Source of the DNA: Escherichia coli
GTDB taxonomy: Bacteria > Pseudomonadota > Gammaproteobacteria > Enterobacterales > Enterobacteriaceae
DNA length: 64,000 nucleotides
Assembly (NCBI RefSeq): GCF_003991155.1
Contig: NZ_CP031293.1
Reading direction: 5' to 3' (one strand)
Shown: piece by piece, positions 34,299 through 35,635 of the stretch
Layout of the letters: each line of letters begins with the position of its first letter
How positions within the stretch are numbered: the first letter of the stretch is position 1
The notes under the pieces: model-generated
Seen by the model: the letters and a program-made list of their open reading frames with translations, nothing else
Told to the model about the DNA's origin: nothing
The model's database searches: none
Made by a program: the position numbers and the translations under genes

Positions 34299-34338
34299 CT
34301 TGTAGGCCTGATAAGACGCGTGAGCGTCGCATCAGGCA
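34299..34338. repeat. REP element
   Basis: GTAGGCCTGATAAGACGCGTGAGCGTCGCATCAGGC between cysI and cysH. Confidence 0.8.
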
Positions 34339-34358: not shown

Positions 34359-35093
34359 ATGTCCAAACTCGATCTAAACGCCCTGAACGAACTGCCGAAG
34401 GTAGATCGCATTCTGGCGCTGGCGGAAACTAACGCCGAACTGGAAAAACTGGACGCTGAAGGCCGCGTTGCCTGGGCGCTGGATAATCTGCCTGGTGAAT
34501 ATGTACTTTCTTCCAGCTTTGGCATTCAGGCGGCGGTGAGCCTGCATCTGGTGAATCAGATTCGCCCGGATATTCCAGTGATCCTCACCGATACGGGTTA
34601 CTTGTTCCCGGAAACCTACCGCTTTATTGACGAGTTAACGGACAAACTCAAACTCAACCTGAAAGTGTACCGCGCTACCGAAAGCGCCGCCTGGCAGGAA
34701 GCACGTTACGGAAAACTATGGGAGCAGGGCGTTGAAGGCATTGAAAAGTACAATGACATCAACAAAGTCGAACCGATGAACCGGGCGCTGAAAGAACTAA
34801 ACGCGCAAACGTGGTTTGCTGGCCTGCGCCGTGAACAATCCGGCAGCCGCGCCAATTTACCGGTGCTGGCAATTCAGCGTGGCGTATTTAAAGTGCTGCC
34901 GATTATCGACTGGAATAACCGAACGATATATCAGTACCTGCAAAAACATGGCCTGAAATATCACCCATTATGGGACGAAGGATATTTATCGGTCGGTGAT
35001 ACCCATACAACCCGTAAATGGGAACCCGGCATGGCGGAAGAAGAAACGCGTTTCTTTGGCTTGAAAAGGGAATGTGGATTACACGAAGGGTAA
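34359..35093 (+). CDS. cysH: phosphoadenosine phosphosulfate reductase
   Basis: 244 aa from internal ATG with RBS GAGGAA; C-terminal ECGLH motif. Confidence 0.95.
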
Positions 35094-35112
35094 ATATTGC
35101 TGCTTAAATTAA

Positions 35113-35150
35113 ACGCCTCTGTCTGAAAAGATGGGGGCGTTTTTATTTTG
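35113..35150 (+). terminator. probable cysH terminator
   Basis: AACGCC...GGCGTT stem followed by TTTTTATTTT. Confidence 0.5.
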
Positions 35151-35357
35151 CGAGCAGGATTCCTGATTTTAAACGTGAACGCCGCAGGAAGAATCAACAG
35201 GCATAGAATGGCGTTGGGTGCTTGAGGCTGTCTGGCGTTAAGCATTCGCGAGGTTCCAGATGGACAAAAGCCCCAGGCGATATTTCTATCAACCTGAGGC
35301 CAGCGTTCGAACCTAAGCAATTCGGATGTTAGTCTCTTCTTTGCAGGGAGGCAAGAC

Positions 35358-35510
35358 ATGCTGACAAAATATGCCCTTGTGGCAATCATCGTACTGTGTT
35401 GTACAGTACTGGGATTCACGTTGATGGTAGGCGACTCGTTGTGTGAGTTGAGTATCAGAGAACGTGGTATGGAGTTTAAGGCAGTTCTCGCTTACGAATC
35501 GAAGAAGTAG
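35358..35510 (+). CDS. hokX: Hok/Gef-family type I toxin (small membrane peptide), 50 aa
   Basis: [50 protein letters not shown]: N-terminal TM helix, conserved LCE and AYES motifs of Hok; RBS GGGAGG; not in ORF track (below size cutoff); symbol by position next to cysH, from memory. Confidence 0.8.
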
Positions 35511-35515
35511 CCACC

Positions 35516-35580
35516 ACGCGGGGTAAAACCCCGCGTACTGAATTGTGATTGTTTGGCCTCCTGCACCCCTTTTTTATACT
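35516..35580 (+). promoter_or_regulatory. hok mRNA 3' fold-back element and terminator
   Basis: CGCGGGGTAAAACCCCGCG hairpin; GCCTCCTGC (35556-35564) near-complementary to the hok SD region GCAGGGAGGC (35343-35352); followed by T-run. Confidence 0.6.
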
Positions 35581-35635
35581 CTGTTTCTGGTGGCATTGAT
35601 TTCCTGCAGGCAAGGGAGTAATCATTTCAAACCCA

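Follow-up and report, generated by a model that had tools for sequence, protein, structure and literature searches.

The spacer between cysH and iap of the E. coli strain studied here carries a compact set of genes and control elements on both DNA strands (all coordinates refer to the window, i.e., the whole stretch of 64,000 nucleotides that was analysed). On the plus strand, an open reading frame (ORF) of 50 amino acids (35358–35510) encodes HokX, a predicted membrane toxin of the Hok/Gef family, and is preceded by the Shine-Dalgarno (SD) sequence GGGAGG (35346–35351), located 6 nt 5' of the ATG. On the minus strand, opposite the toxin's leader, lies the counterpart of the K-12 gene for the 59-nt antisense RNA SokX (35261–35319). 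Taken as a whole, the region 35204–35575 is very probably the known chromosomal type I toxin–antitoxin locus hokX/sokX in intact form, which is already annotated and published and is not new. A first-pass annotation had placed both the 50-aa ORF and its ribosome-binding site exactly here and called the ORF unlisted. The latter holds true only because the gene falls below the length cutoff of the first-stage ORF list, as RefSeq annotates the same ORF. Genome scans that discard ORFs shorter than about 60 aa miss hokX.

The assignment of the peptide draws on Pfam, RefSeq, NCBIfam, an alignment with HokE, and Table S2 of a 2026 preprint on Hok homologs (bioRxiv 10.1101/2025.08.07.668861). The alignment proposed in the first-pass annotation as a check comes out in its favor, with residues 5–46 matching positions 1–42 of the 42-position Pfam model HOK_GEF (PF01848) at an E-value of 6.3e-10. 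The sole NCBIfam matches are the Hok family and HokA models, both under their curated cutoffs. The N-terminal transmembrane helix and the LCE and AYES motifs described earlier are likewise present: residues 6–24 form the best 19-residue hydrophobic window (mean Kyte-Doolittle value of 2.76), LCE occupies residues 28–30, and AYES occupies residues 45–48. The conserved residues C14/C15, T16, L28-C29-E30, and E39 are in place as well, as judged by eye, without an alignment, against the conserved positions in the preprint's logo. In Table S2 of that preprint, the identical peptide is listed as 46_982 (construct LRP171). According to the text of this source, 42 of the 45 tested Hok homologs were toxic on induction, and 46_982 is not among the three non-toxic identifiers that are named there. 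A side observation concerns the codons for Tyr46-Glu47, TAC GAA (35493–35498), which form a TACG motif within the hairpin loop CUUACGAAU of the minimum free energy (MFE) fold. The same preprint links TACG to TadA-dependent A-to-I editing and Tyr-to-Cys recoding in Hok genes.

The protein WP_000956458.1 is found in all six E. coli strains with an intact ORF whose sequences were fetched. Five of these six alleles differ from the window by about 4–6% in DNA, and when they are aligned with the window, all seven variable nucleotide sites in the hokX ORF are synonymous (7/7), next to an upstream spacer in which 18% of the sites vary. This pattern points to purifying selection on the ORF. Its small size is the only thing that could make one think of a chance ORF in the cysH–iap spacer, unrelated to Hok. 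That idea is refuted by the Pfam, NCBIfam, and Rfam matches, the RefSeq annotation, and the purifying selection, and we regard its probability as negligible.

The genomic context agrees with this identification. In RefSeq, the identical protein (WP_000956458.1, named Hok/Gef family protein) is encoded next to cysH. The 547-nt cysH–iap spacer of the window, used as a query, matches 5425 of the 5426 complete E. coli genomes; in 4139 of the 5426, the hokX module is present to at least 80%. Strain 2016C-3878 is 100% identical across the 547-nt query and has the same gene order as the window (cysJ-cysI-cysH-hok-iap-cysD-cysN). A position directly 3' of cysH, identity with K-12 sokX, and the RefSeq HokX protein are thus all found together. 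The literature has also described the locus. Almendros et al. (2014; PMC3903273) included a "hok sok toxin-antitoxin system" in the CRISPR-I locus and found that only strains with the K-12-type cas variant lack it. Among uropathogenic strains surveyed in 2025 (PMC12736100), 90% have hok and sokX adjoining cysH, and a study of AIEC strains (PMC7232551) named the cysH–iap gene hokX. A literature search for the name "mokX" found no paper using it.

Comparison with K-12 MG1655 shows how the right-hand border of the locus differs between strains. Downstream of cysH, K-12 carries sokX (b4701), followed by cas3 and the whole type I-E CRISPR-Cas block, and then iap. The alignment of both sequences is near-identical from cysH to the hok ATG and stops at 35360, so K-12 has retained the leader and sokX and lost the toxin ORF. 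In K-12 and about a quarter of the E. coli genomes, either the hokX ORF is lost or an insertion sequence (IS) sits in its 3' untranslated region (UTR). In the window, only 48 bp (35577–35624) separate the hokX 3' end (35576) from the point where the iap-flank homology with K-12 begins (35625), whereas the equivalent position of K-12 is filled by about 9.7 kb comprising cas genes and an array. With up to three mismatches allowed, no type I-E CRISPR repeat was found in the whole 64-kb window. The window strain therefore has no type I-E CRISPR-Cas block, and its hokX abuts iap, an arrangement that is among those already catalogued (PMC3903273 and PMC12736100).

Several observations on the neighborhood and on related loci deserve a short mention. 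HokX-type genes lie directly 3' of cysH in Kluyvera, Pseudocitrobacter, Lelliottia, E. whittamii, and another Escherichia sp., so this chromosomal position appears to be older than the genus Escherichia. In several species, two HokE-type genes stand in tandem at a distance of about 500 bp, resembling the "islets" described in the Hok preprint. In strain PSS-07, an IS4-like element of the IS421 family is found just 3' of hokX, and the homology of this strain to the window ends within the GC-rich 3' hairpin (window-equivalent 35531–35535), upstream of the fold-back element discussed below. K-12 hokE has IS186 inserted 18 nt past its stop codon. Such insertions just 3' of hokX/hokE-type toxin genes would sever the fold-back element.

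To the left of the module, the terminator scan found the intrinsic terminator of cysH (cysJIH) with its T-run (35111–35142, plus strand; a 14-bp stem plus TTATTTT). It insulates hokX against read-through and, lying outside the module, is mentioned as context only. Weak Rfam matches at this site (ctRNA_p42d, Spot_42, and PyrR) are far below their gathering scores and reflect the terminator hairpin. Further upstream, between cysI and cysH, a REP-like palindrome (34306–34338) aligns, on either strand, with half of the naRNA4 model (33.6 bits, well under the gathering score of 59.5). Finally, a 152-aa ORF (34961–35419, minus strand) runs antisense over the 3' end of cysH and the hokX leader, and RefSeq lists a similar "hypothetical protein" running antisense over the leader of hokE; neither is likely to be a genuine gene.

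The putative antitoxin gene was located by mapping K-12 b4701 (NC_000913.3, 2887353–2887411) onto the window by alignment, the correspondence with K-12 hokX/sokX that the first-pass annotation had suggested checking. SokX is predicted to fold into a free single-stranded 5' tail and a long hairpin, ending in a 3' UUUUG (−22.7 kcal/mol). The earlier proposal that a Sok-type RNA lies opposite the leader agrees with this mapping, and its approximate position (about 35280–35360) has to be moved, as K-12 sokX maps further upstream and 35326–35354 corresponds to a putative promoter. The latter consists of a −10 box TAACAT (35326–35331) and a −35 box TTGCCT (35349–35354) on the minus strand, read from the sequence and the 5' end of K-12 sokX. 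With a 17-nt spacer, these boxes have 8 of the 12 consensus positions (below the scan threshold), predict a +1 at 35319 that coincides with the 5' end of K-12 sokX, and overlap the hok SD on the opposite strand. The promoters of hokX and sokX and the Sok terminator all escaped a consensus promoter/terminator scan, and the calls given here come from the K-12 alignment and from reading the sequence.

Only one Rfam family in the 64-kb window reaches its gathering score, namely RF01794, which matches 35216–35373 on the plus strand (model positions 1–157; 110 bits versus a gathering score of 59). Since this match is on the plus strand, the model really describes the leader of the hok mRNA. Although labeled "sok antitoxin", RF01794 matches the hok mRNA strand, from the 5' end of the mRNA to shortly after the start codon, and not the strand that encodes Sok. 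Pipelines using this family will consequently annotate "sok" on the strand opposite to the real one and overestimate its length by about 100 nt.

Position 1 of the Rfam model also supplies the 5' end of the predicted full-length hokX mRNA, which is about 360 nt long (35216–35575, plus strand). A putative −10 box, TAGAAT (35204–35209), lies 7 nt 5' of the predicted +1 and is accompanied by a poor −35 region. The 3' end was placed by a T-run (35570–35575) and by the point where homology stops among strains with different right-hand neighbors; homology to cas3-bearing strains ends at about 35576. Folding of 35216–35576 gives an MFE of −131.3 kcal/mol (z = −3.4 versus shuffles). Within this RNA, we recognize the elements known from hok mRNAs. 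At the very 5' end is the candidate translational activator element tac, GGGUGCUUGAGGCU (35216–35229), and near the 3' end is the candidate fold-back inhibitory element fbi, GGCCUCCUGCACCC (35555–35568). A local complement of tac (35234–35247) is its partner in a metastable 5' hairpin that is predicted for the RNA when its 3' end is removed, a concept taken from PMC9841398. Further into the leader, the MFE pairs and the Rfam alignment indicate a stem-loop (35270–35300) between GCCCCAGG (35270–35277, resembling the ucb/anti-SD element) and CCUGAGGC (35293–35300). The latter provides a GAGG box positioned like the mok SD, and the complement of the whole stem-loop is the terminator hairpin of SokX. 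Past the stop codon, both the sequence and the folds contain the GC-rich stem-loop CGCGGGGUAAAACCCCGCG, which forms the perfect hairpin CGCGGGGTAAAACCCCGCG (35517–35535) already noticed in the first pass. It has equivalents in hok paralogs and, following the model for R1 hok (PMC9841398), is presumed to be the protective 3' end of the processed, active mRNA.

Which part of the mRNA does the 3' element pair with? In both the MFE and the centroid fold of the full-length RNA, GGGUGC..GAGGCU (35216–35229) is closed with GGCCUC..GCACCC (35555–35568), i.e., tac with fbi. The duplex of tac with the 3' UTR of the window has a predicted energy of −24.1 kcal/mol, a value reached by none of 300 shuffles. 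At pndA-like, srnB, Proteus IncX8, and IncHI2 hok loci, the corresponding duplexes amount to −20 to −23 kcal/mol (reached by 0–8 of 300 shuffles). The intact hokE locus gives only −15.5 kcal/mol, no better than shuffles (78–110 of 300), and its tac/3' pairing is supported by the position of the site and by full-length folds. At all six loci compared, the 3' sites are located 44–51 nt past the stop codon.

The first-pass annotation had proposed another partner. It described GCCTCCTGC (35556–35564) as nearly complementary to GCAGGGAGGC (35343–35352), which is correct (one base is bulged), and from this it proposed that the 3' element pairs directly with the hokX SD region and masks the SD until 3' processing. 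For the window allele, the folds do provide arguments for such a helix. The SD/3' duplex has a predicted energy of −21.8 kcal/mol, and dinucleotide shuffling of the 3' UTR attained this value in 7 of 300 cases. The partition function pairs the 3' element with the SD region at a probability of about 0.45–0.49 (versus 0.51 with tac), and the best structure holding the SD/3' helix is only 1.2 kcal/mol above the MFE. Moreover, hokX has no mok frame, and for such a gene it would be functionally sensible to mask the hok SD directly. The probability of tac–fbi pairing is only about 0.5–0.6 in the window allele, compared with 0.95–1.00 in the three other E. coli hokX alleles that were folded.

Natural variation among the six E. 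coli hokX alleles cannot separate both pairings, as the sole variable fbi position (C35557T) changes a G-C into a G-U pair in either helix. The comparison was therefore moved to paralogs and to other genera. Among six divergent hok loci, 87% of the cells pair between the first nine nucleotides and their 3' partners, and four of the nine pairs show compensatory double changes (the 3' nonamers having been picked by complementarity). Only 1 of 500 shuffles comes up to this, and slid registers drop to 31–50% paired. A wider set was collected by a pattern scan with one genome per species. It yielded 42 stretches that carry genes of the HokX/HokE type and come from about a dozen Enterobacteriaceae genera; 40 of these loci had enough flanking sequence for folding of the full-length RNA. 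In all 40, nucleotides 1–6 are predicted to pair with the distal 3' UTR at a probability above 0.5 (median 0.98). In addition, tac position 7 covaries with its partner: of the 26 distinct combinations, 8 have C-G and another 8 have U-A or U-G.

The SD/3' helix behaves differently in the same comparisons. Its probability is 0.06, 0.00, and 0.00 in the three other E. coli hokX alleles, and close to zero in 38 of the 40 HokX/HokE-type loci; the orthologs linked to cysH in Kluyvera, Lelliottia, Pseudocitrobacter, and E. whittamii are among these 38. At the hokE, srnB, pndA-like, Proteus, and IncHI2 loci, the SD/3' duplex is no better than shuffles. The tac sequence GUGCUUGAGGC and the SD region UGCAGGGAGGC look alike, so a complement of tac is also a partial complement of the SD region, and the SD/3' complementarity probably arises as a by-product of this resemblance. 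Two bases of the window allele also have a bearing on the SD/3' helix. The helix is lengthened by T35550, which is specific to the window and a G in every other E. coli allele aligned. C35557 is shared only with the ST131-type allele (the one with an SD-helix probability of 0.06), and the window is the only allele folded with an appreciable alternative SD/3' helix. We thus consider it unlikely that masking of the SD by the 3' element is how the locus works; such masking would be a minor, non-conserved, and allele-specific possibility. Of the mechanism first proposed, the fold-back inhibitory element is retained, and its conserved partner is predicted to be the mRNA 5' end (tac) and not the SD. 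The window also illustrates that alleles differing by single nucleotides may have a differently tilted predicted equilibrium of the competing inactive folds.

Returning to the conserved tac–fbi pairing, a full scheme of control can be drawn up with R1 hok as the model. In R1 (PMC9841398), fbi pairs with tac and the ucb anti-SD box masks the mok SD, until trimming of the 3' end lets tac pair with ucb, exposing both the SD and the Sok target. By analogy, a full-length hokX mRNA closed by tac–fbi would be translationally silent and refractory to SokX. Slow trimming of the 3' end up to the GC hairpin (35517–35535) would then remove fbi and allow the leader to refold. Trimmed hokX RNA would be bound by SokX and degraded; once SokX is depleted, it would be translated instead, and the peptide would damage the inner membrane. 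When the 3'-truncated hokX RNA was folded, a local 5' hairpin was obtained and not the tac/ucb helix expected from R1, so the activation step of this scheme rests on analogy.

The leader of hokX departs from the R1 model in one more respect, as no mok-like ORF was found in it, even with non-ATG starts included. There is no start codon 5–9 nt past the GAGG box (35296–35299), and neither alternative frame is open. A 12-codon upstream ORF (uORF; 35326–35364, plus strand) is the sole candidate for a leader ORF; its TGA overlaps the hokX ATG (ATGCTGA). Its own ATG (35326) is at the same time the complement of the sokX −10 box, which makes conservation of this ATG ambiguous. At hokE, the equivalent upstream ATG is in frame with the toxin, whereas that of hokX is out of frame. 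Considering this double role of the ATG and the different frame in hokE, the uORF was not called as mok. With mok absent, hokX has only a strong SD of its own and the 12-codon uORF by which its translation might be coupled to SokX control. One could picture hokX as a mok-less variant of hok regulation, in which the toxin is translated from its own strong SD, perhaps coupled to the uORF. The ribosome-binding region of this uORF would abut the SokX target, and fbi would be bifunctional in the window allele, covering the 5' end or, alternatively, directly the hok SD. We put this picture forward as a rather doubtful one.

The missing mok frame also invites the opposite thought, namely that the locus is a regulatory relic, in which the peptide and antisense genes persist, the toxin is never translated without mok, and the module is inactive. 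Apart from the absence of the canonical frame, this thought is fed by K-12 and the roughly one quarter of E. coli genomes that have no ORF or an IS in the 3' UTR, and by the report that the five hok loci of K-12 are non-functional (PMC7232551). However, a relic would hardly be expected to keep its protein identical, with only synonymous changes at the seven variable ORF sites, across strains that are only 94–96% identical in DNA, nor to be retained as a cysH-linked gene across genera. Tac, fbi, and the 3' hairpin are all intact, as are the putative Sok promoter and terminator, and a strong SD precedes the hokX ORF. Furthermore, the identical peptide belongs to the toxicity-assay set of the Hok preprint and is not named among the non-toxic constructs in the text of that source. 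All in all, we find an inactive relic a rather improbable description of the window's locus.

What remains is an intact and apparently selectable copy of a toxin gene that was lost in K-12. Beyond correct annotation, its significance is small. Two aspects may nonetheless help those working on type I toxins, even if neither changes the established picture: the pairing of 5' and 3' ends is conserved in the hokX/hokE cluster over about a dozen genera, yet hokX is without a canonical mok frame, and the balance between the predicted folds depends on the allele.

Among the known systems, hok/sok of plasmid R1 is the more distant relative, with a Hok peptide that is 41% identical to HokX over 41 residues. 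R1 has, and hokX is predicted to have, a cis-antisense Sok RNA opposite the leader, tac–fbi pairing of the mRNA ends, an anti-SD stem, and a protective 3' hairpin. In R1, Sok acts on a 70-codon mok frame, and translation of hok is coupled to that of mok (PMC9841398), whereas hokX has the 12-codon uORF only. The hokX gene is chromosomal and syntenic across genera, and a role in plasmid stabilization does not apply to it.

A much closer relative is hokE/sokE of E. coli, located between ybdK and entD instead of cysH and iap. Its peptide is 78% identical to HokX and, according to the Hok preprint (bioRxiv 10.1101/2025.08.07.668861), belongs to the same cluster "46" at 60% identity. The hokE leader can be aligned with that of hokX and shares its Sok geometry, and the 3' GC hairpin is the same. 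As in hokX, tac/fbi pairing is predicted. The tac of hokE differs in having a C at position 7, paired to a G in fbi, and the SD/3' complementarity of the window hokX is absent.

The closest match is the known hokX/sokX locus of E. coli itself (sokX being b4701 in K-12), which lies directly 3' of cysH as in the window. The RefSeq protein WP_000956458.1, identical to that of the window, occurs in strains with and without cas genes. The window allele carries T35550 and C35557. The leader and sokX of K-12 are nearly identical to those of the window up to the hok ATG, and whereas the hokX ORF is absent from K-12, it is intact in the window strain.
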